The notes: a model not told the origin generated them from the letters alone. Shown: positions 15,721-45,699, counted from the first letter of the stretch. The stretch is DNA of 64,000 nt from Candidatus Moraniibacteriota bacterium (GCA_030648835.1 JAUSGT010000001.1:69010-133009), one strand, 5' to 3'. Translations and numbers: made by a program.

Positions 15721-15728
15721 TTTTTTTG

Positions 15729-29376: not shown

Positions 29377-29434
29377 CGGGGCTTGACGCTTGGGTTACTT
29401 TCCGTTACTCTTCAGCTGCGTTGCATCGGACTAC

Positions 29435-29516
29435 CCCTGGCACTGAGCCGTCAAAGCTGCCTGGGAACCTCCTCCTCCCTTGCGCCGAGATCTCTCAGTG
29501 CTGGGGACCTTTTTTA
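29435..29516 (+). terminator. Long-stem hairpin + U-run in 455-nt intergenic region (terminator or 3' end of a structured RNA)
   Basis: CCCCTGGCACTGAG ... CTCAGTGCTGGGG (a 13-bp stem around a 45-nt loop), followed by ACCTTTTTTATT. Confidence 0.4.
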
Positions 29517-29832
29517 TTCATCAAGATTTTTGAGATGGGGCGGGTCCGCCCGCTTGACGGAAGAACAAAACTTTGCTATCCTTCTTTGGCTCAGAATATG
29601 GGCGAAGGAGCTCTATCGGGCATAATAACGACCCCCACGAATTGTTTCGGGCCGTTTTAATTTTTCTGGTTCTTTTGACAGGGAGTAGTGATGCATCCGC
29701 AACAGCAGATTATACAAGAACAAGGTTCTCTTGAACCGCATTTTATCGCGCGATTCTTACACCACGCGAAAACGTATCTGGGTACGGAAGGTATCCGGAC
29801 CTGGCCGGAAGACAAGACAGAGGAGGAAAACA

Positions 29833-30048
29833 ATGGCGGAAGATGAATGGAGAAAAATGACGATAGCCGCGGAAGCTGCCATCAGGGAGAAGAATATCGC
29901 GCGGGCGCTTGAAATCAGGAGTGAACTCTCGCAAGTCGCTGATCGCAGTCCGAAGATCAATCAATATTACCGGACTTTTTACGATCTCGTTTTGGCCATT
30001 CATTTTGGCCAGCCTGTACAGATTGAAAGGCTCTCCGCTTTGGCCTAG
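29833..30048 (+). CDS. Small hypothetical helical protein (71 aa), tentative
   Basis: Good SD (AGGAGGAAAACA ATG) and a charged helical sequence. Internal start of the 29731 ORF. Confidence 0.4.
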   Translation: MAEDEWRKMTIAAEAAIREKNIARALEIRSELSQVADRSPKINQYYRTFYDLVLAIHFGQPVQIERLSALA

Positions 30049-30191
30049 AGCCAGCCGGAAATCGGACGGAACGTCGGCATGTACATTCGGGGTTAGGAGA
30101 ACGTTTCCTGGCCCCGAGTTTTTGTTTTCTGGCGGGAACGAGCGGCAATGTGCTAGAATAATACATTCCTCATTCATTAAGGTTTTATACT

Positions 30192-31586
30192 ATGGATATA
30201 CGGATTGCTCGGGAAAATATGGGGTATTTTACAAAAAAGGGAGCACTGGCATTTCGCTTTGACGCGACCGGCAAGGATGGCATGGTTGTCTCGCAGGGGA
30301 ACAAACACACCTGTGTGCTGAAGATTGATGAGTCGGAGAAAGTAACGAGACGAAAGCTTATTCTTCTCGTTCGGCGGGTGGTGTACGAGGCGCTGGCTAA
30401 AAAATACACTACCGTCGTTCTCGATTTCAAACAATTTCGTTTTCCCAAAATAGTCATTACCGATGAAGAACTGGCGGAACTCATGGCTACGAATTTTCTC
30501 ATGGCTCACTTTGCTTTCCGTGATTTTCTTACCAAACCCAAAGAAGGCTGGCCGGAAATCAAGACTATTGTTCTGACAAACGCCGGTACAAAAGAAGTGA
30601 AGGCAGGTATTGAGCGAGGAAAGATAATCGGTGAGGAAGTCAACCGTTCGCGGCATATCGCGACCATGCCGGGCGGACATATGACGCCGGAAATCCTAGC
30701 CAAGCATGCAGAAGTGTCTGTCAAAGGCTTGCCGGTCAAAGTACGGGTGCTGGGTGTCCCGGAAATGACTCGTTTGAAAATGGGAGGGGTGCTCGGCGTC
30801 GGCAAAGGATCGGATGCCAAACCGTGTTTTATTATTTTGGAATATTTTGGCGGTAAGAAAAATGAGAAGCCGGTGGTGCTGGTGGGTAAAGGTGTGACGT
30901 TCGACACCGGAGGAATCAATCTCAAGCCCAGCGACTATATTCTCGGTATGAATATGGATATGTCCGGCGGGGCAGCTGTGATTCATTCGCTAGCTGCTGC
31001 GGCACGTTTGAAACTGAAGAAAAATGTTGTGGCCCTTATTCCGGCGGTGGAAAATATGCCCTCCGGATCGAGTTATCGTCCCGGAGACATTTTGCATTCT
31101 ATGTCGGGAAAAACCATTGAAGTATTGAATACCGACGCGGAAGGGAGAATTATTTTGGCGGACGCTCTTATCTATGCGAAGCGTTATCATCCGGCACTTG
31201 TCGTGGACGTAGCGACGCTGACAGGCGCGGCCATGGGGGCGCTTGGAGAGCGTGCCTCGGCGCTCTTTACTCAGGATGAAAAATTGGAACTCCAGATACG
31301 TCATCTCGGCGAAGCCACGGGCGACTATGTGTGGCCCATGCCGCTCTGGGATGAGTATGACGATGAAGTGAAGGGGACGTTTGGTGATGTAGCCAACCTC
31401 GGCAAGACTCGTTACGGAGGGGCTGTGACGGCGGCCGTGTTTCTCAAACAATTCGTGGATAATAGCTATCCCTGGGTGCATCTTGATATCGCGCCGCGCA
31501 TGACGACCTTGCCCGATGAATTTCTCGCCAAAGGTTCTGCCGGCGCCCCGGTGAGACTCCTGGTGAAGATTCTTGAGAAATTGTAA
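30192..31586 (+). CDS. pepA: Leucyl aminopeptidase (M17 family)
   Basis: NTDAEGRIILADAL signature and M17 metal-binding residues. Confidence 0.9.
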   Translation: MDIRIARENMGYFTKKGALAFRFDATGKDGMVVSQGNKHTCVLKIDESEKVTRRKLILLVRRVVYEALAKKYTTVVLDFKQFRFPKIVITDEELAELMATNFLMAHFAFRDFLTKPKEGWPEIKTIVLTNAGTKEVKAGIERGKIIGEEVNRSRHIATMPGGHMTPEILAKHAEVSVKGLPVKVRVLGVPEMTRLKMGGVLGVGKGSDAKPCFIILEYFGGKKNEKPVVLVGKGVTFDTGGINLKPSDYILGMNMDMSGGAAVIHSLAAAARLKLKKNVVALIPAVENMPSGSSYRPGDILHSMSGKTIEVLNTDAEGRIILADALIYAKRYHPALVVDVATLTGAAMGALGERASALFTQDEKLELQIRHLGEATGDYVWPMPLWDEYDDEVKGTFGDVANLGKTRYGGAVTAAVFLKQFVDNSYPWVHLDIAPRMTTLPDEFLAKGSAGAPVRLLVKILEKL

Positions 31587-31603
31587 AGTAAAAAAGAAAA
31601 ATA

Positions 31604-31632
31604 AAGCCCCGGAGGATTTCCGGGGTTTTTTA
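31604..31632. terminator. Bidirectional rho-independent terminator
   Basis: AAAGCCCCGGA ggattt CCGGGGTTTTTT. Confidence 0.6.
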
Positions 31633-31660
31633 AAAGAGACAAGACAGGGTGTTTTTCCGG

Positions 31661-32110
31661 CTATCCTTTTTTGAAAACACGGCTATTTTTTAATTGCTCC
31701 AGAGCTGCACTTTCGCCTTTCATGCGCAGAACCTCAGTGAGGAGTTGCGGATCGCCCATAACAGCTAGCTTGTCCGGAATCTCCGGCGTATGATAATGAT
31801 CCCGTAATATGGCGTAGAGCCGCAAGACATCGTTTGATAATTTTATTTCAGCCACACCCGCGTACACCTGGGCATTGGCCATGTATATTTCACTGACGGA
31901 TGCCCCCGCTTTTTCGTCTATTATTTTCTTGACGATTTCATATTCCGGCAGAGCCAGGCATCCTTCGAGCGTGTGATAAGCATCATATTCCCTATTGATA
32001 TAGGTAACATTGGAATCTTTCTTTTCTTGTGGTACCGCGGGGGTCTGCGGTTCCTTCTTATCTTCGGGAAGTTCGGAGGGGAGTTCAAAAGCTTTGGCGG
32101 GGGTTGCCAT
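31661..32110 (-). CDS. Hypothetical protein (149 aa)
   Basis: Clean ORF convergent with pepA. No family recognised. Confidence 0.5.
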   Translation of the reverse strand: MATPAKAFELPSELPEDKKEPQTPAVPQEKKDSNVTYINREYDAYHTLEGCLALPEYEIVKKIIDEKAGASVSEIYMANAQVYAGVAEIKLSNDVLRLYAILRDHYHTPEIPDKLAVMGDPQLLTEVLRMKGESAALEQLKNSRVFKKG

Positions 32111-32256
32111 AGGATTTTGTATTAATGGATTGTCTTGTATTATAGCATGGACAAAAATCCTATAAGTTGTGGGTATTTGGCGTGGGCGTGGTAGGATGGG
32201 GGTATCAGAGGGGGAGATGGCGAGATATGGGTATTAAATAATTAATATTTAAAGTT

Positions 32257-32655
32257 ATGAAAGGATTCCACGCAAACATAGAAAAAGACACGCTCGAGAA
32301 CACCGACTTCCGTCGCGTGCTCTACACAGGCAAACACAGCCAGCTGGTACTGATGAGCTTGAAACCCAAAGAGGAGATCGGTCTCGAAACACATACCGAA
32401 AACGACCAGTTTTTTCGGATAGAAAAAGGCCACGGTATGTGCATCCTCGATGGCCATGAATACGCACTCGCCGACGGTTCAGCCATTGTGGTCCCGTCCG
32501 GCGCCAAGCACAATATCATCAATACGTCGGAGACAGAAGACCTCAAGCTCTATACCGTCTACTCTCCGGCACACCATAAGGACGGCATTGTCAGGGCTAC
32601 CAAAGAAGAAGCCGAAGCCAACGAAGCGGAGTTCGACGGCACAACTACCGAATAA
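32257..32655 (+). CDS. Cupin-domain protein, copy 1
   Basis: Small cupin barrel (GLETHTENDQFFRIEKGHGMCILDGHEYAL...VVPSGAKHNIIN). About 95% identical to the 37045 copy. Confidence 0.75.
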   Translation: MKGFHANIEKDTLENTDFRRVLYTGKHSQLVLMSLKPKEEIGLETHTENDQFFRIEKGHGMCILDGHEYALADGSAIVVPSGAKHNIINTSETEDLKLYTVYSPAHHKDGIVRATKEEAEANEAEFDGTTTE

Positions 32656-32677
32656 ATATTGGCCATTGCCAAAAATG

Positions 32678-32717
32678 AAAGCCAGGGGCAGGCATAATAA
32701 ATATACTGAGCTGTGAA
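32678..32717 (+). repeat. Family-R 40-bp repeat, copy 1
   Basis: AAAGCCAGGGGCAGGCATAATAAATATACTGAGCTGTGAA. Five copies, all coding-capable for (K)AK(G/S)R(H/Q)(D/N/S)KYTE(Q/L)*. Confidence 0.6.
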
Positions 32718-32739
32718 TCGATAGAATAGTATTGATGAT

Positions 32740-32767
32740 ATTCTCACATTCTGCAGAATGTGAGAAT
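32740..32767. promoter_or_regulatory. 28-bp perfect palindrome P1 (ATTCTCACATTCTGCAGAATGTGAGAAT), candidate ArsR operator
   Basis: Perfect dyad 11 nt upstream of the arsR-family gene start. Two more copies at 33051 and 36936. Confidence 0.55.
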
Positions 32768-32778
32768 GTTGAAAAGGT

Positions 32779-33057
32779 ATGAAGAAGGTATTGAAGACAG
32801 CCAAACAATTGGAACGGCATTTCAAGGGAGCGGCCAATCATCGCCGCATCGAGATTTTGCTTTTGCTCGCTGATGATGAGGGTATGAGTTTGGACGGGAT
32901 TGCCGAGCGGTTAGATTGCAACATCAAAACCATTTCAGAACACACACGCAAGCTGGTGCAAGCCGGCTTGGTAAACAAGGCATACAAGGGGAGATCGGTC
33001 GAACACACGCTTTCTCCGTACGGAAAATCATTCTGCCGTTTTATAAGAACATTCTGA
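32779..33057 (+). CDS. ArsR/SmtB-family winged-helix transcriptional regulator
   Basis: HRRIEILLLLADDEGMSLDGIAERLDCNIKTISEHTRKLVQAGLV is a typical HTH_5 fold. Confidence 0.8.
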   Translation: MKKVLKTAKQLERHFKGAANHRRIEILLLLADDEGMSLDGIAERLDCNIKTISEHTRKLVQAGLVNKAYKGRSVEHTLSPYGKSFCRFIRTF

Positions 33058-33078
33058 CATTCTGCAGAATGTCAGAAT
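33051..33078. promoter_or_regulatory. 28-bp perfect palindrome P2 (ATTCTGACATTCTGCAGAATGTCAGAAT)
   Basis: Overlaps the arsR stop codon and lies ~70 nt upstream of the kinase-like gene. Confidence 0.55.
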
Positions 33079-33147
33079 GTCTGGGGTGGGTGGTTTTCGG
33101 GTGGGGGAGGTGGTAGGATGGACGTAACGAGTTAGGTAACAGGAATT

Positions 33148-34023
33148 ATGTCGGAATTCTCTCCAATTGAAGCGCTCAAAGTGCCCGTGAAGAAAGTGGC
33201 CAGGGCGGCGGAAAACGCGTTTTTTAATTATGAAAGGAATCAAAGTACTGAGGCGTCATGGGACACTCTTTTTGACAACAAAGCGGGAAAATTCCTGCGC
33301 ACCCAAGCGCTCTTCACGGTGATTCGCGATATGGTGCCGGACAGCCTCTTCGAAAAATTGACCGGGAGATTTTACAAATATCAGAAAGGTGGTCTGCCGA
33401 TTGATCCGGAGAAATATACTTTTGACGAAAAAAGGGTTGGTGGCGGTGGCGAATGCAATGTTTACAGGCTCAACTCGCTTGATTCGGATCTTCCGTCACT
33501 CGTGATCAAAATTGATCAATTCATTTCCCGCAGTACCGATAAAATGCTCACTCGGGCCAAGGCGGTAAAAAGTGAGTATGAAGAGAAAAAAGAATTATAT
33601 CGGGATCTGCCGGAATTGATTCCGGACGAGTTCCACTTTATCGGAAAAAGTCCGCGTGGGGGAAAGCCGGCCCTTCTGACGATCCAGGAGTTTCTCGGTA
33701 ATGAGAATGAAATGAGAGATCTCTTCCGAGGTATCAGTAAAGAAGAATTATTGGAAATCTTGCGGCAGAACTCTCGATTGCAGGCAGACTTTCGGAAATT
33801 TGCAGGAATTACGCTTGAGCGTGCTCGTGAAAAGGATGAGATGATCGATACTTTGGGAGACAAAAACCTGGTGCTTATACAGAGAGAAGGGAATACCTCT
33901 CTCATCTTTCTTGACCCGCATGTTACCAAGCATCCCGTTGCCGATGTGAAAGAGAGCGCGAGGATCCGGGCGGATCTCGATTATCTGGAGGGTATCGTCG
34001 CGACGCTCGATAATGGCGAGTAA
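33148..34023 (+). CDS. Protein-kinase-like fold protein (atypical kinase), tentative
   Basis: Gly-rich loop VGGGGECNVY, a VIKI (VAIK-like) lysine, and catalytic-loop-like GDKNLVL...IFLD. Not a P-loop kinase. Confidence 0.4.
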   Translation: MSEFSPIEALKVPVKKVARAAENAFFNYERNQSTEASWDTLFDNKAGKFLRTQALFTVIRDMVPDSLFEKLTGRFYKYQKGGLPIDPEKYTFDEKRVGGGGECNVYRLNSLDSDLPSLVIKIDQFISRSTDKMLTRAKAVKSEYEEKKELYRDLPELIPDEFHFIGKSPRGGKPALLTIQEFLGNENEMRDLFRGISKEELLEILRQNSRLQADFRKFAGITLERAREKDEMIDTLGDKNLVLIQREGNTSLIFLDPHVTKHPVADVKESARIRADLDYLEGIVATLDNGE

Positions 34024-34051
34024 TCGTCCGGGATGATAGGATGGACGTACT

Positions 34052-34669
34052 ATGAATTACAAACGCTACGATATTGTCGTCATCCCGCCAAAAGATATTA
34101 CCGAACAAGCCATCGAGATGAGCCGGGCATTGGAGCGGTTTGATTCTTTTTTCGTTCTCGATGATGAGACATTCCATCCGCACATTTCGCTCTACCATGC
34201 GCCCTTCGACGAGTCAGCGCTCGAAACCGTGATTGCTGTAGTGGGAGACATCGCGGCCGCTACGCAGTCATTTTTGTTACAGCAGGAAACGTATTATCCG
34301 GATCAAGGAGTATGGGTCGGAGTGCGCTATGTCGTCGACAAAGCCATTCTCGATCTGCATACCGCTGTCATCGAAGCGACGAAAGGCTATCGTGTGATAG
34401 AGGATGACGCCCGCTACAAGGCGCGCTGGGCGGATCTCGGCCCGCAGCAACGAAAAAACATAGAGGATTGCGGCTGGCCGGATGCCTTTACCGCTTATTT
34501 TCCGCATATCAGCTTTACGAAACTGAAGCAACCGAAAGCGGATGTCCTCGCCCATCTCCCGCAACACGACTTCTCATTTCTTGCCGACCATATCGGTTTG
34601 TATGAACTGGGGGCAGACGGGACATGCGCCAAGCTCGTGGCGGACTTCCGGCTTGAAAAGAGGGACTGA
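34052..34669 (+). CDS. 2H phosphoesterase superfamily protein (LigT/CPDase-like)
   Basis: Two H-x-S motifs (HPHISLY and FPHISFTK) spaced as in the 2H fold. Confidence 0.65.
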   Translation: MNYKRYDIVVIPPKDITEQAIEMSRALERFDSFFVLDDETFHPHISLYHAPFDESALETVIAVVGDIAAATQSFLLQQETYYPDQGVWVGVRYVVDKAILDLHTAVIEATKGYRVIEDDARYKARWADLGPQQRKNIEDCGWPDAFTAYFPHISFTKLKQPKADVLAHLPQHDFSFLADHIGLYELGADGTCAKLVADFRLEKRD

Positions 34670-34784
34670 AGGGGAGTTATAGTTCCTATATATAGTTATT
34701 GGCAATAAATGTGTAGGTTACTGTATATTTAGGTAGATTTACATACTACTTGTGTAGATTTAGATCGTATGATAGTATCATTAT

Positions 34785-35504
34785 ATGGAAGAAGAATTAC
34801 TTACAATCGGTCAAGCTGCTGAATATCTTGGGGTCGCTCTGAACACGTTACGTCGTTGGGACGAAAGTGGTAAATTGGTTGCGATCAAAAAGGATGGTGG
34901 CACTCATCGATATTATCGTGAGAAAGACTTGGAAATTTTTGCCAGTGATTTGATGATGTTTGCTTCTGGGTGGATCGAGAGCGGAGTTGAGTTTCCAGGG
35001 ACATTCTATTGTTCGACCAGCTCGATTTTCAATGCCAGACTGACGAAAATGGAGTACGTGCTCATGCAGAAGCCGGGATTTGAAAAATTATATTCCTTGA
35101 TTGTTCTCGTTACCGGAGAGATTGGTGACAATTCGTTTGCTCACAACTTGGGGAAGTGGCCGGATACAGCAGGAATTTTTTTCGGTTACGACCTAGAGAA
35201 GCGGATCATTGTCCTGGCTGATCGAGGACTGGGTGTATTGGAGACGTTGTGCCAGGTGCGTCCAGACCTTCCGAGTCATGTGGCGGCGGTGGAAGTTGCC
35301 TTTACCGAATTTATTTCTGGCCGGGCACCGGAAAAGCGAGGTAACGGACTGAAACTCGTTCGCGAGGTCGTCACGGATCAGCCAATTGATTTATTTTATA
35401 CCAGCGGGGATGCCGAGGTGCGCATGCAAGGCGCGGATAAAGTGTTTCGTGTTACGCGCGGGCAACATATCTTGAGGGGATGTTTAGCAAAGATAGAATT
35501 TTAA
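34785..35504 (+). CDS. MerR/excisionase-type HTH fused to GHKL (histidine-kinase-like) ATPase domain
   Basis: N-terminal LTIGQAAEYLGVALNTLRRWDESGKL. ATPase N box (GEIGDNSFAHNLG), G1 (DRGLGV) and G2 (RGNGLKLV). Confidence 0.6.
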   Translation: MEEELLTIGQAAEYLGVALNTLRRWDESGKLVAIKKDGGTHRYYREKDLEIFASDLMMFASGWIESGVEFPGTFYCSTSSIFNARLTKMEYVLMQKPGFEKLYSLIVLVTGEIGDNSFAHNLGKWPDTAGIFFGYDLEKRIIVLADRGLGVLETLCQVRPDLPSHVAAVEVAFTEFISGRAPEKRGNGLKLVREVVTDQPIDLFYTSGDAEVRMQGADKVFRVTRGQHILRGCLAKIEF

Positions 35505-35812
35505 TCCATTGTAAAAAGCATATGAAATTACAGCTAGAAAAATTTGGCACGACGCTCATATCGCGGGAATTGGGGAGCGAGGCCTTCAAGGCATTCCAGT
35601 CGACTCTGCGCGAGCTTTCTCCTGATGAAGAGCTAGAAATAGATTTTTCTGGTGTACTGACATTGTCACCGTCATGGGCTGATGAATTTTTAAGTCCATT
35701 GCTGAATCAATTGGGTGACAGATTAATTCTTTTACCGAGTGACAATCTTTCAGTACACGCAACGCTCCGAATTCTTCAAGAGGCTAATAAGCAGAGTTTT
35801 ACGATGAAGTAA
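35480..35812 (+). CDS. STAS-like DUF4325-family protein (putative partner-switching antagonist)
   Basis: LEIDFSGVLTLSPSWADEFLSPLL resembles DUF4325. 25-nt overlap with the GHKL gene. Confidence 0.5.
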   Translation: MFSKDRILIHCKKHMKLQLEKFGTTLISRELGSEAFKAFQSTLRELSPDEELEIDFSGVLTLSPSWADEFLSPLLNQLGDRLILLPSDNLSVHATLRILQEANKQSFTMK

Positions 35813-35882
35813 TGTACCCCGCCCGCCGTGCTTGCTCTGTGAAATTGCAAAGCACCGACGGAGTCGGATTCCGCTTCGGAAA

Positions 35883-35922
35883 AAAGCCAAGAGCAGACAG
35901 AGTAAATATACTGAGCAGTGAA
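35883..35922 (+). repeat. Family-R repeat, copy 2 (variant AGCAGACAGAG)
   Basis: AAAGCCAAGAGCAGACAGAGTAAATATACTGAGCAGTGAA, followed by the conserved leader GTATTAAGGACTGGAAGAAATAAGAAT ATG. Confidence 0.6.
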
Positions 35923-35949
35923 GTATTAAGGACTGGAAGAAATAAGAAT

Positions 35950-36591
35950 ATGGCGTATATCTTTCTTGATGAAAGTGGTGATTTGGGGTTTGACTTCAAA
36001 AAGAAGGGCACTTCCAAGTTTTTTATTGTTACCATTCTCTTTACCGAAGACTCCAGAGGAGGGATTGAAAAGGTGGTGAAGAAAACACATTCAGAACTTG
36101 CGAAGAAATTCAAAAGACGTGTTGGTACATTGCATGCGGTTCAAGAAAAGCCCATTACCCGTACCCGTTTTCTGAAACGGATTGCCGAGAAGGAATGTGG
36201 TGTTATGGCTATTTATCTCAACAAGAAGAAGGTACATACGCATCTCCAGGACGAAAAACAAGTGCTTTACAATTACGTGACCAATATTCTCTTAGATAGA
36301 ATCTATACGAAAAAAATTCTTTCCCCGGATCTTGTCATAGAGCTCATCGCATCTCGGCGCGAAACCAACAAGTTTCTTAATGAAAACTTCAAAGATTACT
36401 TGAGCCGGCAAATAAAGAATAACCACAAAGGTCTTATGAAAATTTCCATTAAAACACCGGCTGAAGAGAAGTGTCTTCAGGCAGTAGACTTTCTGAGTTG
36501 GGCAATTTTTCGTAAATATGAGCGCGGAGATGAAAGTTACTACAATCTTTTCAAGAGAAAAATCATCGAGGAGAATCCTTTATTTCCGTAA
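35950..36591 (+). CDS. DUF3800-family protein
   Basis: N-terminal MAYIFLDESGD and C-terminal LQAVDFLSWAIFRKYE are DUF3800 hallmarks. Internal start of the 35812 ORF. Confidence 0.65.
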   Translation: MAYIFLDESGDLGFDFKKKGTSKFFIVTILFTEDSRGGIEKVVKKTHSELAKKFKRRVGTLHAVQEKPITRTRFLKRIAEKECGVMAIYLNKKKVHTHLQDEKQVLYNYVTNILLDRIYTKKILSPDLVIELIASRRETNKFLNENFKDYLSRQIKNNHKGLMKISIKTPAEEKCLQAVDFLSWAIFRKYERGDESYYNLFKRKIIEENPLFP

Positions 36592-36873
36592 AAACAAAAC
36601 CTCGTACGCTGTCTAGAGCAACCATCCGGAAGCCCACGTACGAGGATTTACTTGTATGCCTGTATTGTAGTAAATAAAACAAGACTTGTCAAGGGAAGGG
36701 GGCTGACGTATTTTTGCGTAAAAAATGGAATATTTTGGCTTGTTTTCTTTACGGAAGGGGGCATTTGGAGTAGATTGGTGATAGGTTTATCCCGCTTGCC
36801 GCGTTGCTGTACGAGATAGTCATGAATTTTCGGATTATACGGTAAAAGTATTGAGTTTATTCATTTTCCGTAA

Positions 36874-36913
36874 AAAGCCAAGAGCAGACAGAGTAAATAT
36901 ACTGAGCAGTGAA
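36874..36913 (+). repeat. Family-R repeat, copy 3
   Basis: Identical to the copy-2 variant. Immediately preceded by a stop codon in the peptide frame, so not part of an intact gene. Confidence 0.6.
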
Positions 36914-36935
36914 TCCATAGAATAGTATTGATGAT

Positions 36936-36963
36936 ATTCTCACATTCTGCAGAATGTCAGAAT
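36936..36963. promoter_or_regulatory. 28-bp palindrome P3 (hybrid of P1/P2, one mismatch) upstream of cupin copy 2
   Basis: ATTCTCACATTCTGCAGAATGTCAGAAT, about 80 nt upstream of the 37045 start. Confidence 0.5.
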
Positions 36964-37044
36964 GATTGGGTGGGTGGGGGGAGGTGGTATGATGGGTGTA
37001 CCAGAGGGGAAGATTCGTGTATTAAATAATAATATTTCAATACT

Positions 37045-37443
37045 ATGAAAGGATTCAACACACACATAGAAAAAGATACGCTCGAGAACACCGACTTCCG
37101 TCGCGTGCTTTACACAGGCTCGCACAGCCAGCTGGTATTGATGAGTTTGAAACCCAAAGAGGAGATCGGCCTCGAAACACATACCGGAAACGACCAGTTT
37201 TTTCGGATAGAAAAAGGCCACGGCATGTGCATCATCGACGGCCATGAGTATGCACTCGCCGATGGTTCGGCTATCGTGGTCCCGTCCGGCGCCAAACACA
37301 ATATCATCAACACGTCGGAGACAGAAGACCTCAAGCTCTATACCGTCTACTCTCCGGCGCACCATAAGGACGGCATTGTCAGGGCTACCAAAGAAGAAGC
37401 CGAAGCCAACGAAGCGGAGTTCGACGGCACAACAACCGAATAA
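37045..37443 (+). CDS. Cupin-domain protein, copy 2 (duplicate)
   Basis: Near-identical to 32257..32655, including ~80 bp of upstream leader and ~60 bp downstream. Confidence 0.75.
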   Translation: MKGFNTHIEKDTLENTDFRRVLYTGSHSQLVLMSLKPKEEIGLETHTGNDQFFRIEKGHGMCIIDGHEYALADGSAIVVPSGAKHNIINTSETEDLKLYTVYSPAHHKDGIVRATKEEAEANEAEFDGTTTE

Positions 37444-37465
37444 ATATTGGCCACTGCCAAAAATG

Positions 37466-37505
37466 AAAGCCAAGGGCAGGCATGATAAATATACTGAGCT
37501 GTGAA
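37466..37505 (+). repeat. Family-R repeat, copy 4
   Basis: AAAGCCAAGGGCAGGCATGATAAATATACTGAGCTGTGAA, then the leader GTATTAAGGATTGGAAGAAATAAAATT ATG. Confidence 0.6.
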
Positions 37506-37532
37506 GTATTAAGGATTGGAAGAAATAAAATT

Positions 37533-38018
37533 ATGAAAAAAACTAGTAGCAAGGGGATTGTTGGCGTATCTGGTGAATATTTTGTGGCTGCGGAACTTTC
37601 TCAGCGAGGCATTGTGGCTACCTTGACTCTCAAAAACACTCCCTATATCGACATACTTGCCACAAACTTAGAAAAGGGCACAACCGCCAACATTCAGGTG
37701 AAAACTATGTCTGTCGATAACAATGCTGGTTGGAGATTGGGGGAAAAAGATGGATTGCCTTCAAATATAAAGAATCACTTTTATGTGCTCGTTGATTTAC
37801 ATGGACCTGGTAAATTGCCCGAATATATAATCATACCCAAGAAAGTATTAGCAGATTTTATAAATAAGGGTCATGCTGAATGGCTTTTAGGAAAAAAGAA
37901 GGATGGCTCCTCTAGAAAAAATACTGGCGTTAGAGTTTTTGATCCAAACAGAAAAGTGTCTACTCGAAAATTTGCCGAAAAATACGTAAATAATTGGAGC
38001 ATATTAGATTTGTGGTAG
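37533..38018 (+). CDS. PD-(D/E)xK nuclease-fold protein (putative)
   Basis: GVSGEYFVAAEL...IDILATN...ANIQVKT matches an E...D...(Q/E)xK arrangement. Internal start of the 37482 ORF. Confidence 0.45.
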   Translation: MKKTSSKGIVGVSGEYFVAAELSQRGIVATLTLKNTPYIDILATNLEKGTTANIQVKTMSVDNNAGWRLGEKDGLPSNIKNHFYVLVDLHGPGKLPEYIIIPKKVLADFINKGHAEWLLGKKKDGSSRKNTGVRVFDPNRKVSTRKFAEKYVNNWSILDLW

Positions 38019-38026
38019 TAAAAGTT

Positions 38027-38374
38027 ATGGATAAGATAAAAGATTTGACTAAAAGAATACTAGCTTTCCGCAATGCTCGGGACTGGAAGCAATTTCACAA
38101 TCCGAAAGACGTGGCGCTCTCGCTGGTTTTGGAAGCGGCGGAGGTTATGGAACATTTCCAGTGGAAGAACCCGGCGGAAATTGAAGAGTATGTAAAAAAG
38201 CATAAGAAAGATATAGGCGAAGAATTGGCTGATGTTTTCAATTGGGTGTTGCTGCTGAGTCATGATTTGGGGATAGATATTGTAGAAGCGGCCAAAAAGA
38301 AAGTTAAAAAGAACGAAAAAAAGTACCCCGTAGAAAAAGCCAAAGGCAGGCATGATAAATATACTGAGCAGTGA
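38027..38374 (+). CDS. MazG-like nucleoside triphosphate pyrophosphohydrolase (small all-alpha NTP-PPase)
   Basis: ILAFRNARDWKQFHNPKDVALSLVLEAAEVMEHFQWK...ELADVFNWVLLLSHDLGIDI. The C-terminal tail is encoded by Family-R copy 5. Confidence 0.75.
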   Translation: MDKIKDLTKRILAFRNARDWKQFHNPKDVALSLVLEAAEVMEHFQWKNPAEIEEYVKKHKKDIGEELADVFNWVLLLSHDLGIDIVEAAKKKVKKNEKKYPVEKAKGRHDKYTEQ

Positions 38375-38375
38375 A
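38336..38375 (+). repeat. Family-R repeat, copy 5 (forms C-terminus of MazG-like gene)
   Basis: AAAGCCAAAGGCAGGCATGATAAATATACTGAGCAGTGAA. Confidence 0.6.
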
Positions 38376-38420
38376 TTGATTACCTCGCTGAGCAGGATTT
38401 CGCTAGGAATGTTAGGATAT

Positions 38421-38436
38421 ACGTAACGAGTTACGT
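38421..38436. promoter_or_regulatory. Palindrome ACGTAACGAGTTACGT upstream of AbrB-like gene (autoregulatory operator candidate)
   Basis: A 7-2-7 dyad. A related leader (GGTAGGATGGACGTAACGAGTTAGGTAACAGG) precedes the kinase-like gene. Confidence 0.4.
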
Positions 38437-38456
38437 AACAGGTTACATAACAAACT

Positions 38457-38615
38457 ATGAACAAAGAAATTAGAAAACTCACTAAGTTAGGGGGAAAATC
38501 CATCGGGCTGACCTTGCCGATTGAATTAGTTCGGGAGTTGGGGTGGAGGGAAAAACAGAAAGTGACCGTCAAGCGTGTTCGTGGGGGTGTGATGATTAAA
38601 GATTGGAAGAAATAG
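38457..38615 (+). CDS. AbrB/MazE/SpoVT-family small DNA-binding protein (antitoxin- or controller-like), 52 aa
   Basis: LTKLGGKSIGLTLPIELVRELGWREKQKVTVK fits the swapped-hairpin beta-barrel family. Not in the ORF track (under 60 aa). Confidence 0.45.
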   Translation: MNKEIRKLTKLGGKSIGLTLPIELVRELGWREKQKVTVKRVRGGVMIKDWKK

Positions 38616-38658
38616 GACTAATCTTGCAATAATATTAATGACGTGTTATTATTAGTGT

Positions 38659-39621
38659 ATGTCTGGTAAACAAGAAATAAAAATAATTCAAGAAACTTTC
38701 GACATAAACGCTATTTATGCAAGACGTGTTTTTGCTTCGGTGAATATTTCAAACTTTTTAGAGGAAGCGAGACAAATTATAACGAGCAAACCAAAGCCAT
38801 TTGTGAAATGGGTTGGGGGGAAGCGACAATTACTCAAGCAGTTTCGACTCCTTGATCTTTATCCACCGGACGAGTTTGATCCTGAGAAGGCAAGATATTT
38901 TGAGCCGTTTGTAGGGGGAGGCGCAGTGTTCTTTGATTTACTTCCGAGAAAGGCTTATTTGTCTGATCTTAATTTTGAGCTTGTCACAACTTATAATGTT
39001 ATTAAAAATGATGTTGAAAAGTTGATTACATCGTTAAAAAAACAAAAATATAATAAAGAGTATTATCTGAAAATCCGTTCAAAAAATCCTGAAAGGTTGT
39101 CTGATCTACAAATTGCTACTCGTTTTATATTTTTGAATCGCGCCGGCTTCAATGGGATGTATCGTGTAAATAGTAAAGGAGGGTTTAATGTTCCTTTCGG
39201 TAAATACGAGAATCCGCTTATTTGTGATGAAAAAAATCTTCGGAAAGTTTCGAAGGCGTTGCAGAATGTTGAAATAAAACACCAAGACTATAAGTTCGTT
39301 TTGAAGAAAGCAAAGAAAAGAGACTTTATATATTTTGATCCGCCATATCATCCAGTAAGTAAAACGGCAGCGTTTACTTCATATACCTCACAAGGTTTTG
39401 GGGAAAAAGAACAAATAGAATTACGTGATACATTTTTGAAACTTCACAAGAGAGGTTGTTTTGTGATGCTTTCAAATTCTGATGCGCCTTTTATTAATAA
39501 AATTTATTCTGAAATTAAAAAATATGGTGTCAGAATTAATAAGGTTGAAGCAGGGCGCGCAATAAATTCAAAGGCTTCTGGAAGGGGTAAGATCACAGAA
39601 ATATTGGTAACTAACTATTAA
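38659..39621 (+). CDS. Dam-family N6-adenine DNA methyltransferase (alpha class)
   Basis: FVKWVGGKRQLL, EPFVGGGAVFF, FLNRAGFNGMYRVN, IYFDPPYHP and LSNSD align with Dam motifs. Confidence 0.9.
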   Translation: MSGKQEIKIIQETFDINAIYARRVFASVNISNFLEEARQIITSKPKPFVKWVGGKRQLLKQFRLLDLYPPDEFDPEKARYFEPFVGGGAVFFDLLPRKAYLSDLNFELVTTYNVIKNDVEKLITSLKKQKYNKEYYLKIRSKNPERLSDLQIATRFIFLNRAGFNGMYRVNSKGGFNVPFGKYENPLICDEKNLRKVSKALQNVEIKHQDYKFVLKKAKKRDFIYFDPPYHPVSKTAAFTSYTSQGFGEKEQIELRDTFLKLHKRGCFVMLSNSDAPFINKIYSEIKKYGVRINKVEAGRAINSKASGRGKITEILVTNY

Positions 39622-39625
39622 TCTT

Positions 39626-40384
39626 ATGGCAAATAATAATTCGTGGAATAAAATTTTCGAAGATAATAATATTTTAGAGCACGATTTTTCTAAAAGCCCT
39701 TTTTATTTGTCTGCAGAAATGATAAAAAAATCAGTACAAGAGTTTAAGAAAACTAATGAGAAAGAGGTGCGTTGCTTATGTAAGATGGATACGCGAGAAA
39801 GCGTTCCAGAAATAATGAGAAGAAATGGATTGGTTTTGTTGCCAGTCAAAAATAAATATTATGTGATAGTAAACGGCGAAGGATATGTCGATATACCTGA
39901 AATCAATAGTGAAGCCGAAATCTACAACACTAAATTGGATTTTGATTTAGACACAGCGAAAATTGGAAACTCAGAAATGCAGCATCTTGATTTTGCTTAT
40001 GCTTCAAGCCTTATTAGAACATTCATGAGCGATCCTTCGCTAGTTCTAACAATTAGAGGGAGGAAATATACACCAGAGTTTAGTTATAAAATTGGTAACA
40101 ATATAATTGATACGAAGGGTGTTCAAACTGAAGTTGATGCCGGTTATGAAGGAAAGGACAAGATTGTTTTGATAGAAGCAAAGAACTCATCTACTAAAAA
40201 TACAATCATTAGACAATTGTATTATCCATATAGACAATGGGCAGAACACACAAAAAAGGAAGTCTTCTTATTATTTTTCGAGAAGAGGATTGATGAATAT
40301 TTGATATGGCAATACAGGTTTGCTGATAAAGACAGCTACGATTCTATTAAATTAGTTAGATCTAAAAAATATAAAATTGTTTAA
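39626..40384 (+). CDS. Putative type II restriction endonuclease (between two MTases; MboI/DpnII-like gene order)
   Basis: Sits between two DNA MTases in an M-R-M arrangement and has a PD-(D/E)xK-like VDAGYEGKDKIVLIEAK. Family not verified. Confidence 0.5.
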   Translation: MANNNSWNKIFEDNNILEHDFSKSPFYLSAEMIKKSVQEFKKTNEKEVRCLCKMDTRESVPEIMRRNGLVLLPVKNKYYVIVNGEGYVDIPEINSEAEIYNTKLDFDLDTAKIGNSEMQHLDFAYASSLIRTFMSDPSLVLTIRGRKYTPEFSYKIGNNIIDTKGVQTEVDAGYEGKDKIVLIEAKNSSTKNTIIRQLYYPYRQWAEHTKKEVFLLFFEKRIDEYLIWQYRFADKDSYDSIKLVRSKKYKIV

Positions 40385-41137
40385 GTGTCTGAAAAAGAGA
40401 TAAAACTGCATCCGGATGAGTTTGAAATGGAGTGCACTACAGTATGGGCATTTCCTCGTCGTGGTAATTGGGCTACACACAAGTCGGATTGGCGTGGTAA
40501 TTGGGCGCCAGAAGTTGCTCGAAATTTGATATTGCGTTATTCAAAGGAGGGTGATCATCTACTAGATTGCATGATCGGTGGTGGAACAACGGCAATAGAG
40601 GCAAAAATATTGAATCGTCATATTACTTGCGTTGATGTTAATGAAGAAGCTCTCAAACGGACAAGAGACGCTTTGAAATTTGATGTTGATAACAAAGCAA
40701 AACAACGAATAATAAAGTGCGATGCTCGAAACATGAGTTTTATCAAGGACGGAGAAATAGATTTTGTTCTCACTCATCCACCATACGCGGATATTATAAA
40801 ATATAGTGATGGAAAATTAGAGGATGACTTATCAGGTATACATAATATAGATGCCTTTGTAGATGAGATGGAGAAAGTTATCAAAGAAATGTTTCGAGTA
40901 CTAAAGAAAGGAAAATATTGTGCGATTTTGATGGGGGATACAAGACGGAATAAAATGTATCAGCCTCTCGCATTTAAGGTAATGGGTAGATGTCTGAGCG
41001 CAGGATTTGTCTTGAAAGAAGATATTATTAAAAGGCAGTTTAACTGTAAAGCAACTGGTTTTTGGGTGAATAGGTCAAAAGAGAGCAACTTTCTTTTAAT
41101 TATGCATGAACACTTATTTATTTTTCAGAAAATTTGA
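40385..41137 (+). CDS. DNA methyltransferase, N4/N6 family (second MTase of R-M module)
   Basis: AdoMet motif LLDCMIGGGTT and catalytic LTHPPYADI. Confidence 0.8.
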   Translation: MSEKEIKLHPDEFEMECTTVWAFPRRGNWATHKSDWRGNWAPEVARNLILRYSKEGDHLLDCMIGGGTTAIEAKILNRHITCVDVNEEALKRTRDALKFDVDNKAKQRIIKCDARNMSFIKDGEIDFVLTHPPYADIIKYSDGKLEDDLSGIHNIDAFVDEMEKVIKEMFRVLKKGKYCAILMGDTRRNKMYQPLAFKVMGRCLSAGFVLKEDIIKRQFNCKATGFWVNRSKESNFLLIMHEHLFIFQKI

Positions 41138-41250
41138 GATGCCAAAAAAGATACCATGAAAGATGTGAAAGATAAAGTAAAAAGATTTATTAATTGCATA
41201 GGTGAAAAACGTGGTGACGTTAATGAAATATTGATCATAAATTATTAAAT

Positions 41251-44044: not shown

Positions 44045-44049
44045 ATAGT

Positions 44050-44991: not shown

Positions 44992-44999
44992 TATACGGA

Positions 45000-45467: not shown

Positions 45468-45543
45468 GTACTTTTTTCTTGCAAAAGGAGTACAAAGGCG
45501 GCACAACTGAATAGCGAACTATCGAGAGAGTGGCGGTGGGGGG

Positions 45544-45572
45544 CTTGCTATTTTCATAAAAGTATGCTATAA
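45544..45572 (+). promoter_or_regulatory. Sigma70-like promoter (TTGCTA-17-TATAAT)
   Basis: Near-consensus -35 and a perfect -10 with 17-nt spacing, about 125 nt upstream of the AbiEii-like gene. Confidence 0.5.
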
Positions 45573-45654
45573 TGGGTGTGTAAAAGAAGAAAAAAATAAA
45601 AACCATCCAAAATATTAAAAGAAGTTAGGAAAGAGCCATATTCACAAGATATTC

Positions 45655-45687: not shown

Positions 45688-45699
45688 TAACCCACTAGT

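Follow-up and report, generated by a model that had tools for sequence, protein, structure and literature searches.

Integron cassette arrays are series of co-oriented single-gene units, each followed by a repeated element. In mosaic phages and in CDI/Rhs orphan toxin modules, short boundary stretches or gene fragments mark, and probably mediate, the exchange of neighbouring genes. The locus described here, from a genome of Candidatus Moranbacteria (CPR), recalls both. As in integron arrays, its co-oriented single-gene units each end in a repeated element, but there is no intI or attI, the repeat R has no attC-like fold and most units carry their own promoter. As in mosaic phages and CDI/Rhs modules, short conserved boundary stretches or gene fragments lie beside exchanged genes, but the locus is not a phage and the fragments kept are 3' ends with their stop codons, with no swap of protein domains. 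An AbrB-fold MazE-like gene and a palindromic operator ahead of MazG also recall the mazE-mazF-mazG operons (mazEFG of E. coli). As in mazEFG and type II toxin-antitoxin loci, AbrB and MazG are adjacent in two homologous loci (L117 and L132), with variable nuclease-like genes between or after them; unlike in mazEFG, there is no MazF here and MazG is of the small MazG-like PF12643 family. As with ArsR/SmtB repressors, a small winged-helix protein goes with a long dyad, its predicted operator, over promoter elements, upstream of its own gene and of neighbours. Unlike in that family, the palindrome P overlaps the gene's own stop codon and an extra copy lies 4 kb off, before a cupin gene.

Core defence hotspots of E. 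coli and P. aeruginosa hold restriction-modification, Abi and nuclease cargo between syntenic core genes, and exchange by homologous recombination via the conserved flanks has been proposed for them (PMC10121019, PMC10250203). Similar cargo lies here between pepA and mraZ, with different cargo at the same spot in relatives and no integrase; the locus differs in its ultra-small CPR host and in gene-by-gene mosaicism inside, with repeated remnants of two genes. The dif (pdif) modules of Acinetobacter plasmids, units shuffled between replicons, are small and carry at their borders 28-bp sites in which 11-bp arms surround a 6-bp centre (PMC6449649, PMC13141974). P shares this geometry, but it goes with a single regulator gene and with promoters, the R and Q boundaries are non-palindromic, and neither a Xer gene nor a plasmid backbone was seen in the window, that is, the whole 64-kb stretch of DNA that was analysed. 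We propose, with a probability of about 0.6, that the repeats of this locus, instead of being a family of recombination sites, represent the ends and control regions of two small gene modules which were copied, truncated and recombined.

An accessory island between pepA and mraZ

The pepA-mraZ spot is a variable junction: the gap between pepA and mraZ-rsmH-ftsL-ftsI measures 0.15-0.9 kb in most relatives, about 35 genomes, and several relatives hold other cargo there. The stretch from 32.2 to 38.6 kb is the native-GC left part of a 17.5-kb island, in which GC falls to 0.29-0.40 across 38.6-48 kb. The features are as follows; L0 to L4 are leaders inside the window, and three-digit labels such as L064 denote contigs or loci elsewhere.

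31587-49135, no strand: accessory/defence island, 17.5 kb, flanked by pepA (30192-31586) and mraZ (49136-49570)
31661-32110, - strand: 149-aa protein, left-most island gene, without Pfam, PADLOC or NCBIfam match
32189-32256, + strand: L0, predicted extended -10 promoter (TGGTAGGAT; hexamer 32192-32197) and cupin 5' leader
32257-32655, + strand: cupin copy 1 (Pfam Cupin_2, E 5e-15)
32678-32717, + strand: R1, orphan MazG 3'-end remnant, peptide KARGRHNKYTEL and stop
32740-32767, no strand: P1, 28-bp perfect palindrome upstream of the ArsR-like gene
32779-33057, + strand: ArsR-family winged-helix repressor, 92 aa (Pfam HTH_20 and HTH_5)
33051-33078, no strand: P2, perfect palindrome across the ArsR stop codon, upstream of promoter L1
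33079-33147, + strand: G-rich spacer and L1, predicted extended -10 (hexamer 33114-33119), then ACGTAAC..GTTAGGTAAC
33148-34023, + strand: 291-aa protein, no family match
34034-34051, + strand: L2, predicted extended -10 (TGATAGGAT), 9 nt upstream of the start codon
34052-34669, + strand: 2H-phosphoesterase-like protein (Pfam 2_5_RNA_ligase2, E 2e-5, weak and under the curated cut-off)
34785-35504, + strand: MerR/excisionase-type HTH protein, C-terminal domain without family match; own extended -10 at 34770
35522-35812, + strand: STAS-like protein (Pfam DUF4325)
35883-35945, + strand: R2 (35883-35922, peptide KAKSRQSKYTEQ and stop) fused to Q1 (35923-35945)
35950-36694, + strand: DUF3800 gene (35950-36591) and conserved 3' region with a hairpin (36600-36656, z-score -3.0)
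36874-36963, + strand: R3 (36874-36913), 22-nt linker and P3 (36936-36963)
36964-37044, + strand: G-rich spacer, L3 (predicted promoter TGGTATGAT; hexamer 36988-36993) and cupin leader
37045-37443, + strand: cupin copy 2 (ORF listing, blastn against copy 1)
37466-37528, + strand: R4 (37466-37505, peptide KAKGRHDKYTEL and stop) fused to Q2 (37506-37528)
37533-38018, + strand: 161-aa protein, PD-(D/E)xK (Hjc-like) fold, weak support
38027-38374, + strand: intact MazG-like gene (Pfam MazG-like PF12643, 64.7 bits, residues 32-114 of 115)
38336-38375, + strand: R5, last 13 codons and stop of the intact MazG-like gene
38410-38456, + strand: L4, predicted extended -10 (TGTTAGGAT) and repeated GTTACGTAAC-type palindromes
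38457-38615, + strand: intact AbrB/MazE-like gene, 52 aa (Pfam MazE_antitoxin, 30.4 bits)
38595-38615, + strand: Q3, last 7 codons and stop of the AbrB-like gene, C-terminus ..KDWKK
38659-41137, + strand: type II restriction-modification unit (D12 adenine methyltransferase, DUF6996/6997 restriction enzyme, N6/N4 methyltransferase)
41251-47528, + strand: other defence-type genes (ResIII helicase, PD-Lambda-5_A-like, PLD (DrmC-like), TPR, AbiEii, 201-aa protein)

Like the 149-aa protein, the 291-aa and 161-aa proteins gave no family match in the Pfam, PADLOC and NCBIfam searches. The 149-aa gene is absent from the pepA-mraZ junction of relatives; a homologue (76%) adjoins a cupin gene in L064, where a 94% homologue of the 291-aa protein is differently placed. 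The MerR/excisionase-type protein has a Nomurabacteria homologue in L043 (87% identity). The DUF3800 label given in the preliminary description agrees with a Pfam match, and homology with L146 and L147 begins near the start codon and breaks off at 36693/36694. The PD-DExK label found no match among sequence families and is weakly backed at the level of fold (AF2 pLDDT 89, Foldseek): the PDB matches listed are almost all PD-(D/E)xK nucleases, including Hjc, I-Ssp6803I, the SPARDA nuclease and EcoRV (E about 4e-3, TM 0.44-0.53), and E15, D40, Q55 and K57 are invariant. No tyrosine or serine recombinase and no HUH transposase is encoded in the 64-kb window, in which the dcw cluster at 49-64 kb was assigned only by synteny and the MraZ N-terminus; a recombinase could be encoded elsewhere in the genome.

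R and Q and the ends of the MazG-like and AbrB-like genes

The four repeat families R, P, Q and L are all real at the coordinates given for them, far above chance. Five copies of R had been claimed and five are present (32678, 35883, 36874, 37466 and 38336), with five matches to the 18-mer AAATATACTGAGCWGTGA against none expected. R is the 3' end, 13 codons and the stop, of the predicted MazG-like gene, in one intact copy and four orphan remnants. Its proposed role as the true C-terminus of this gene is upheld by the PF12643 match, and a shared C-terminal peptide (..KYP.EKAKG.H.KY..L and stop) occurs in 78 of 78 homologous MazG loci with a readable 3' end. Moreover, the orphan variants do keep the peptide reading ascribed to them, outside any gene context. 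Of 78 other MazG loci that were searched, 77 have no orphan R and one does, and a strict R pattern had no match in JGI metagenomes. R was rightly said not to be an attC-type palindrome: it has neither dyad symmetry nor fold, the folding z-scores (+0.25 to +1.1 in four copies, -0.47 in R3) not being significant. The composite of R, 22 nt and P does occur twice, as described (91 nt, 91% identity). R2 matches R3 exactly over 42 nt, and R copies of the same genome have private variants in common.

Some properties of R sit uneasily with the reading we favour. Variable sites number one in its 3' half versus eight in its 5' half, and this near-invariant 3' half hints at a constraint beyond an origin as a coding end. 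The left edge of R is sharp and nearly unchanged across three independent contexts. In addition, the tracts of 25-42 nt offer little length of homology for recombination of the RecA type.

The leader Q (ATTAARGAYTGGAAGAAATAR) had been placed before two unrelated genes, and it lies immediately upstream of both (at 35925 and 37508); the third copy, at 38595, forms the last part of the AbrB-like gene. Q thus corresponds to the final 7 codons and the stop of this predicted AbrB/MazE-like gene; besides this intact copy there are two orphans, both fused to R. AbrB homologues in L117 and L132 end in ..IEDWKK and the stop, 4-14 nt upstream of the MazG start codon, and in L146 an orphan Q immediately precedes MazG. 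Q, too, lacks dyad symmetry and fold.

Palindrome P, the ArsR-like gene and the L leaders

P had been described as three perfect palindromes. There are three copies (none expected), of which P1 and P2 are perfect; P3 has one mismatched pair, its left half coming from P1 and its right half from P2, with matching outer flanks. The P-ArsR-P layout is also found in three other CPR-type contigs (L108, L043 and L148) with ArsR homologues of 64-67% identity, so that an ArsR homologue accompanies P in 4 of 4 genomes. In L043 and L148 the same layout combines a different palindrome with a different recognition helix. L108 contains four identical copies of P, each over a -35 box (ATGACA), with TATAAT after a 17-nt spacer and then the start of a gene, and one of them overlaps the ArsR stop codon exactly like P2. 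No match to P was found in the viral collection. P is a putative operator of the ArsR-family repressor that it flanks, its sequence changing together with the recognition helix, and the repressor would act through it.

Leaders of the L type are confirmed at 32189, 33111, 34034, 36985 and 38410. L also precedes an ExoIII-family gene beyond the region, at 27326, and hence is not island-specific. The GGTAGGATGGACGTAACGAGTTAGGTAACAGG-type leader assigned to three genes is complete before two (33111 and 38410), while at 34034 only its first half is found. L0 is homologous to 36985-37044 and to L064 2299-2370; L1 is homologous to the AbrB leader L4 and conserved in L064 1-66. The -10 element of L2, 9 nt from the start codon, implies a near-leaderless mRNA, and the end of P3 coincides with the -35 position of the cupin copy 2 promoter L3. 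Matches to TGnTA[GT][GAT]AT lie at most 60 nt upstream of a gene start in 11 of 15 cases, against 6% expected, and these include non-island genes. L is predicted to be the usual extended -10 promoter of the genome, with an AbrB-type operator attached to it in L1 and L4. L4 is probably the promoter and operator of the AbrB-like gene, whose product would exert its regulation through this operator.

Recombination at the modules and competing explanations

The cupin gene is duplicated (32170-32717 versus 36967-37505), at 90.2% identity over 549 columns instead of the roughly 95% over 0.6 kb first estimated, and the copy 1 block ends at 32717 and does not run on to 32770 as a single block. The coding parts agree at 93.7% of nucleotides and 95.5% of amino acids, exact runs of up to 74 nt are common to both blocks, and the four alleles (copies 1 and 2, L064 and L065) are equidistant. 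Among thousands of CPR proteins, the cupin family shows 80-84% conservation.

The picture of a variable accessory region shaped by recombination, in which genes swap partners at short conserved sequences, is borne out both within the window and by contigs from other samples. R2 and R3 differ in their right flanks (Q versus linker-P), and both flanks are found again at R4 and R1, which belong to the other R type, so that 4 of 4 combinations of R type and right flank occur inside the window. A comparison with relatives had been suggested for polymorphism in order and presence; the other-sample contigs hold the same genes and modules in other orders, namely o291-2H-h149-cupin-R-Q-DUF4268 in L064, MazG-cupin-half R in L065 and DUF3800-Q-MazG in L146. 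The R4-Q2 junction recurs in L064 (2792-2858), where a frameshifted, drifting Q' and a Q'' bracket DUF4268. These arrangements support recombination at the R, P, Q and L modules. The integron-like logic, in which R, P, Q and L would delimit cassettes or serve as sites for their recombination, is not supported: R and Q are coding ends, P is a putative operator and L a predicted generic promoter.

It is doubtful that the orphan modules persist and spread as portable expression signals, under selection for expression and not as neutral scars. A promoter with a ribosome-binding site would then be made up of Q and the unvarying 3' half of R (TAAATATACTGAGC, containing a -10-like TATACT), Q providing a Shine-Dalgarno-like AAGGA/GGAAG 4-7 nt upstream of ATG, and P-L would be a repressible promoter unit. 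The skew of variable sites in R fits such a role, as do the position of R-Q, just before the start codon in each of three unrelated genes (DUF3800, PD-(D/E)xK-like and, in L064, DUF4268), the duplicated P-promoter units ahead of four genes in L108 and the end of P3 at the -35 position of cupin copy 2. However, a consensus scan called no + strand promoter in R, R lacks the TGn extended -10 motif typical of the genome's promoters, and Q' of L064 is decaying by frameshift and drift.

A dedicated integron-like machine is not supported (R unfolded, no recombinase in 64 kb, orphan R rare elsewhere). We also regard it as unlikely that P and/or R and Q serve as sites for a site-specific recombinase encoded elsewhere, with single-gene units excised as circles and reinserted like Acinetobacter dif modules or integron cassettes. 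The 11-6-11 arms and spacer of the 28-bp P match dif/Xer site geometry, P3 is the exact product expected from a central crossover of P1 and P2, the central hexamer is inverted between the outer sites around ArsR in L043 (CTCCAG versus CTGGAG), R has a sharp left edge, and dif-module shuffling is documented (PMC6449649, PMC13141974). The direct repeats that bracket units (R2/R3, P1/P2, and Q'/Q'' around DUF4268 in L064) are also expected from site-specific or Campbell-type insertion. On the other hand, P keeps company with ArsR homologues, tracks their recognition helix and overlaps the -35 box of four L108 promoters; R and Q, with which the coding sequences of conserved genes end, have neither dyad symmetry nor fold; and the searches of the 64 kb for recombinases and transposases, of other MazG loci for orphan R (1 of 78), of the viral collection for P and of JGI metagenomes for strict R all speak against such a system.

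A k=31 assembly made independently from the same run (SRR13727527) is interrupted precisely at the cupin/R repeats and at P2 and confirms only 28290-32319, 33051-34919 and 37404-48374; the junction stretches 32320-33050 and 34920-37403 are without support from it, and the exact DUF3800, ArsR and STAS proteins have no match in its gene index. Although these data, the 74-nt exact runs and a divergence between the cupin copies equal to that of alleles from other samples would suit an artefact in which strain variants or a separate small molecule were threaded through the repeats, so that the array is not on one chromosome, this is quite improbable, since repeats diverged to 85-94% make mis-threading or collapse unlikely with k above 74 or read pairs, each junction type recurs in independent assemblies of other samples (cupin-R-Q-gene in L064, MazG-cupin-R in L065, P-ArsR-P in L108, the DUF3800 3' unit in L146 and L147), and polymorphism of the 4.8-kb segment that separates the cupin copies would leave module identity unaffected.

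In the reading that we favour, of two gene modules copied, truncated and recombined, module 1 would be an AbrB(MazE-like)-...-MazG operon, with L1/L4 as promoter and operator, Q as the AbrB 3' end and R as the MazG 3' end, and module 2 an ArsR-type repressor with the 28-bp operator P on either side. The accessory genes occupy five successive R-terminated blocks, four of them opening with L or Q, and this cargo (cupin, DUF3800, the PD-(D/E)xK-like nuclease, the 291-aa/2H pair and the HTH/STAS pair) would sit within former AbrB-MazG units that have mostly lost their own gene bodies by deletion. Unequal or allelic homologous recombination and gene conversion between modules of 25-90 nt and conserved genes (cupin, MazG) may have acted together with deletions between short direct repeats, P1 with P2 giving P3 and the MazG stop with the AbrB end giving R-Q. 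The general machinery of the host would carry out this recombination, by a pathway and in an order of events that we infer; no genes for such a pathway were identified in the 64-kb window. Import of DNA from related CPR cells would probably have contributed. Patescibacteria carry many genomic islands, exchange genes mostly with one another and have kept competence and recombination genes (PMC12455944).

The island between pepA and mraZ

The organism is a Candidatus Moranbacteria (CPR); the identity of its PepA to homologues from species-representative genomes rises to 72-83%. In about 35 related genomes, mraZ-rsmH-ftsL-ftsI starts 0.15-0.9 kb after pepA; hence, the stretch from 31.6 to 49.1 kb of the window is a 17.5-kb insertion. 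At this junction, several relatives have unrelated genes over 1.2-2.7 kb (loci L013, L023, L027, L028, L033, L042, and L044). Some of the junction genes in relatives were read by eye as GGDEF-like. The closest representative (locus L019) has another defence set after pepA, which runs on for 6.9 kb or more, up to where its sequence ends, with no mraZ in this stretch. The pepA/dcw-cluster junction is a variable spot in Moranbacteria. The remainder of the window (49-64 kb) was taken as the dcw cell-division cluster, judging from the N-terminal motif of MraZ and from the gene order that tblastn showed to be shared with relatives (to 54.4 kb). The GC content is 0.29-0.40 in the right part of the island and near that of the genome in the left part, which holds the repeats. 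The defence genes are the following.

38659-47528: defence block, two DNA methyltransferases flanking a DUF6996/6997 restriction enzyme (type II restriction-modification unit)
Downstream genes of the defence block: ResIII helicase, PD-Lambda-5_A-like, DrmC-like PLD, TPR, AbiEii, and a 201-aa protein
11469-17879 of L019: post-pepA set, EcoO109I-like restriction enzyme, C5 methyltransferase, and OLD-family nuclease

The methyltransferase/DUF6996/6997 unit is putatively DpnII-like. The 201-aa protein matched no family, and in the left part of the island PADLOC recognised no gene set as a known defence system. The window has no tRNA or tmRNA gene that could serve as an integration site. Moreover, Pfam and PADLOC returned no recombinase among the main ORFs of 0.7-29.4 kb and 20 island ORFs (31.7-47.5 kb), in agreement with the preliminary description, which had seen no integrase.

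The repeat families as gene ends and as probable operators and promoters

The earlier observation largely holds: a low-stringency self-comparison, first of 31.6-39.0 kb and later of the full 64-kb window, recovered the repeat modules previously described. The copy numbers were reproduced, with five copies of the 40-bp repeat R and three of the 28-bp palindrome P (none expected of either in shuffled sequence). Likewise, Q occurs three times, the third copy being the end of an AbrB-like gene, against none expected in shuffled sequence. The duplication of the cupin gene is present, although its extent and identity had been overstated (about 0.6 kb at 95%): we measured 549 columns at 90.2%, and the ORFs alone share 93.7% nucleotide and 95.5% amino acid identity. 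Similarly, P had been called a perfect palindrome, and its third copy, P3, is imperfect. The leader L is also found beyond the 32-39 kb region. Since R, P, and Q have no copies in the 64-kb window outside 32.6-38.6 kb, we rejected dispersed repeats of the REP/MITE type. Exact-pattern scans gave no match for R in JGI metagenome contigs and none for P in viral contigs; at gathering thresholds Rfam gave nothing, and P drew only chance hairpin (miRNA) matches. A further short repeat, TACCCC.TGAAAyTGC..AGCACCGAC, lies between genes at 35813-35882 and occurs twice in contig L064 of another sample (951-973, 2270-2291); it reads MKLRSTD.. and may derive from the beginning of a gene since lost.

The whole window holds one further repeat family, of about 150 nt, which is unrelated to R, P, Q, and L and whose four window copies all lie outside the island.

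2201-2359 (+), 12614-12768 (-), 15727-15878 (+), 24602-24757 (+): copies in the window
8410-8556: copy in L013
9376-9518: copy in L018
18695-18853: copy in L008
8832-8977: copy in L015
9674-9766 and 18424-18580: copies in L009

The copies form a long branched hairpin (RNAalifold on the four window copies, 52 pairs, 18 of them compensatory), with an outer stem that differs in each copy and retains its complementarity. A covariance model matched five other Moranbacteria loci. The matches fall on both strands and would fit an RNA as well as a DNA element, with either strand as the functional one; taken together, they have 91% paired cells and a covariation score of 0.61, as compared with 0.20 in shuffles. 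No Rfam family matches it. In the window, three of the four copies lie beside uvrA/uvrC-like genes. Two paralogous large genes on the same strand, 10 kb apart (2418-5045 and 12922-15720), share about 60% nucleotide identity over 1.3 kb and enclose a uvrC-like gene. The first matches ABC_tran and UvrA_inter in Pfam; the second was called UvrA-like from its similarity to the first alone.

The repeat R coincides with the end of a gene. The domain of the MazG-like protein (PF12643, 64.7 bits against a cut-off of 27) reaches the last residue of the intact gene, and all 78 homologous metagenome loci with a readable 3' end share the C-terminus ..KYP.EKAKG.H.KY..L*; hence, R is the 3' end of the MazG coding sequence, which is conserved. 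The four orphan copies encode the MazG end peptide out of its gene context. None of the five copies folds better than shuffled sequence (z from -0.47 to +1.1), which rules out attC-like folding. Orphan R is not a general feature of MazG loci either, being absent from 77 of 78 others. The sole other orphan remnant of a MazG 3' end (L070, 7766-8067) reads KKYPVEKAKGRHTKYDRL* and lies 5 kb downstream of the intact MazG of that genome, followed by a short Q-like A/G-rich stretch. Beside it is a pseudogene fragment, by its P-loop motif a candidate N-terminal part of a YchF/Obg-type GTPase.

Q is the C-terminus of the AbrB-like gene, which matches MazE_antitoxin in Pfam with 30.4 bits (cut-off 24.7). 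The AbrB homologue of L117 and L132 ends in IEDWKK* 4-14 nt ahead of the MazG start codon, and in L146 an orphan Q stands immediately 5' of MazG; hence, the native setting of Q, a few nucleotides, and an ATG is an AbrB-MazG operon. In the composite R-Q, the MazG end is fused to the AbrB end, without the promoter and gene body of AbrB that lie in 38375-38594. An AbrB/MazE antitoxin gene is shared with type II toxin-antitoxin systems of the mazEF kind, but the adjacent cognate toxin was not found: Pfam and PADLOC gave no match in the region to MazF, PIN, Doc, and similar toxin families, and the gene 3' of AbrB codes for a D12 methyltransferase.

The leaders L contain predicted promoters. On the plus strand of the window, the extended -10 motif TGnTA[GT][GAT]AT was matched 15 times, for instance at 6322, 27326, 30151, 34034, 34770, and 38644, and 11 of the 15 matches stand at most 60 nt upstream of a gene start (6% expected). 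Because the motif often stands only 7-10 nt before the start codon, leaderless mRNAs would seem to be common in this genome. A scan with the sigma-70 consensus was uninformative (14 matches, 12 expected). Leaders L1 and L4 have an extra part, ACGTAAC..GTTACGTAAC, made up of 10-nt palindromes ahead of AbrB, which is probably the AbrB operator.

As for P, its sequence, ATTCTSACATT-CTGCAG-AATGTSAGAAT, comprises 28 bp with 11-bp arms and a 6-bp center, and it stands on both sides of the ArsR-like gene of the window, which exceeds the Pfam cut-offs for HTH_5 (37.2 bits) and HTH_20 (37.8 bits). In L108, which codes for an ArsR homologue with 64% identity, a nearly identical palindrome is found in four identical copies, each overlapping a -35 box (ATGACA) that is followed by a 17-nt spacer, TATAAT, and a gene start; one of them has just the same overlap with the stop codon of ArsR as P2. 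The same P-ArsR-P layout, with a different palindrome of 28-32 nt and a different recognition helix, was found in L043 and in contig L148 from a viral collection. The two operator classes track two recognition-helix variants (KTIS..LV and KTIG..RL(N/Y)), an ArsR homologue accompanies the P-type palindrome in all four genomes examined, and P3 stops at the -35 position of the cupin2 promoter. P behaves as a putative ArsR operator that changes with the protein, and would share with ArsR/SmtB pairs a winged-helix repressor and a co-varying dyad at promoters. In these CPR-type contigs the layout lies at 3606-5953 (L108), 18701-19126 (L043), and 2944-3571 (L148). The gene after ArsR has a shared opening in L108 and L043, M K T/S F S/A E R/K V Y .. 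V V K K I P K G K V L T Y, and presumably codes for an MGMT/Ogt-like protein, a candidate judged by this N-terminal motif.

Order of the units and their relatives in other contigs

The units of the repeat region are ordered as follows (R5 is the end of the intact MazG gene; 2H, 2H-phosphoesterase-like; STAS, DUF4325 protein).

Unit 1: L0-cupin1-R1
Unit 2: linker-P1-ArsR-P2
Unit 3: L1-(291-aa, 2H, HTH protein, STAS)-R2
Unit 4: Q1-DUF3800-R3
Unit 5: linker-P3-L3-cupin2-R4
Unit 6: Q2-nuclease-like gene-MazG(R5)
Unit 7: L4-AbrB(Q3), followed by the restriction-modification genes

Read with the identities of R, Q, and L, this order places cargo genes where the interior of an AbrB-MazG unit would be, with an AbrB piece (L or Q) on one side and the MazG end (R) on the other. 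The same genes, with 90-96% amino acid identity, are found in other arrangements on contigs from other samples.

L064: L1-291aa-L2-2H-149-aa island gene (-)-L0-cupin-R-Q'-DUF4268
L065: Fic-MazG-cupin-half R
L146: DUF3800-258 nt-Q-MazG
L147: DUF3800 adjoining an IS200-like transposase

The last six residues of the L064 DUF4268 protein, past the Pfam domain, come from Q-like sequence. The DUF3800 unit has the same ends in three contexts, from about its start codon to window position 36694, 3' hairpin included. In L147, a DUF3800 gene with 88% identity lies between direct repeats of about 85 nt (700-790, 1640-1725), with an IS200-type Y1 transposase at 1812-2243 that has no counterpart in the window. 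This hints that IS200-type elements can carry or duplicate such small genes in other genomes.

Both cupin and DUF3800 are 70-84% conserved over thousands of CPR proteins. The HTH protein, with a MerR/excisionase-type N-terminus and an uncharacterised C-terminal domain, is 87% identical to a homologue in L043, a Nomurabacteria genome that shares only 57% identity in PepA. The HTH/STAS pair (34785-35812, the partner being a STAS-like DUF4325 protein) and its relative in L043 (17238-18271) are 87% and 80% identical. This indicates a recent transfer of the pair between CPR classes. The cupin, DUF3800, and HTH genes move among CPR lineages and supply long, well-conserved homology.

The nuclease-like protein of unit 6 (161 aa, 37533-38018) is identical to MDO8565654.1 of NCBI, from a 204-kb Moranbacteria MAG contig. 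It has no sequence-family match; the Foldseek matches listed are almost all PD-(D/E)xK enzymes and are weak (E 4e-3, TM 0.44-0.53), and its predicted fold resembles Hjc-type PD-(D/E)xK nucleases. E15, D40, Q55, and K57 are invariant among about 300 proteins retrieved, of CPR type or from unclassified metagenomes. Public records label the family "aspartate ammonia-lyase", which is probably a misannotation.

Routes of exchange

Copies R2 and R3 are identical over 42 nt, yet R2 runs into Q and R3 into linker and P. The other R type behaves alike, R4 running into Q and R1 into linker-P. All four combinations of R type and flank are present, so at least one crossover took place within the invariant 3' half of R. 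P3 matches P1 in its left half and left flank, and P2 in its right half and right flank; it is the product of an exchange between P1 and P2 that removed ArsR, or the reverse. Private R variants are shared within a genome (CCGG in both copies of L065, CAGG in three of the window, CTGG in L064), which hints at gene conversion. Finally, cupin1 and cupin2 are no closer to each other than either is to the L064 and L065 alleles, and we therefore rejected a recent duplication within this genome.

Altogether, the R-flank combinations, the hybrid P3, and the rearranged contigs substantiate the earlier proposal that genes are exchanged at conserved short sequences. The special boundary system envisaged with it did not hold, as R and Q are coding ends and P is tied to ArsR and promoters. 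We favor, with a probability of about 0.6, a combination of tandem and allelic homologous recombination, gene conversion, and deletion at short repeats. Copies of the AbrB-MazG unit and of the ArsR-operator unit would be the substrates, inside a defence hotspot, and the incoming DNA would probably derive from related cells. Patescibacteria are reported to be rich in islands, to exchange genes mostly within the phylum, and to carry genes for competence and recombination (PMC12455944); for core defence hotspots, homologous exchange via the conserved flanks is a published proposal (PMC10250203).

Regulatory co-option, with R-Q serving as a promoter or ribosome-binding unit, would account for the invariant 3' half of R, and we consider it unlikely. 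About as little credit goes to a dedicated site-specific recombination system acting at P, at R/Q, or at both. Several units do lie between direct repeats, and P has the 28-bp length, 11-bp arms, and 6-bp center of Xer/dif modules. This likeness is in geometry only: dif sites are cargo-independent, whereas the P-type palindromes go with an ArsR homologue (four of four genomes) and overlap -35 boxes. The window contains no Xer gene, R and Q are plain coding ends, and an orphan R occurs in only one of 78 other MazG loci (L070). Elements integrated in tandem at a target gene's 3' end likewise share direct repeats of that end that bracket the inserted DNA (R spacings of 991, 592, and 870 nt, the last R being that of the intact MazG); unlike them, the units carry no integrase of their own, none having been found in the scanned window ORFs.

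It is improbable, in our view, that the locus represents an integrase-free cassette exchange in CPR, in which single genes between handles (AbrB-MazG ends, ArsR operator) form an R-delimited, integron-like array. Genes would then be looped out and reinserted, or traded between cells, by general recombination or a recombinase encoded elsewhere, with the invariant 3' half of R as the preferred crossover point. Integrons are expected to have an adjacent intI gene and an attI site, but the scanned window ORFs include no recombinase; attC sites are imperfect palindromes that fold as single strands, whereas R is a coding end and does not. Integron cassettes are promoterless and co-oriented; the units here are co-oriented, but most have their own extended -10 promoter.

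An assembly artefact in two internal stretches is also improbable, because every junction type recurs in other samples, even though an independent k=31 assembly of the same run (SRR13727527) breaks at exact repeats and confirms only 28290-32319, 33051-34919, and 37404-48374, and exact-protein look-ups for the junctions (ArsR, DUF3800 with two alternative starts, STAS, and the 161-aa protein as given by NCBI) found nothing.

Under the favored reading, homologous recombination between copies of the two units, the locus is a well-resolved case of a known kind in an unusual host, and it establishes no new mechanism. It offers a nucleotide-level view of the reshuffling of accessory and defence genes in the ultra-small genome of an uncultured CPR bacterium, where no machinery of mobile elements is visible, the portable homology being apparently supplied by highly conserved small genes and their control regions. 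For annotation, the first question to ask of repeated "boundary" motifs is whether they are gene-end remnants, operators, or promoters. Moreover, the extended -10/leaderless promoter pattern helps to read regulation in Moranbacteria, and the P-ArsR-P unit can be used for the same purpose.
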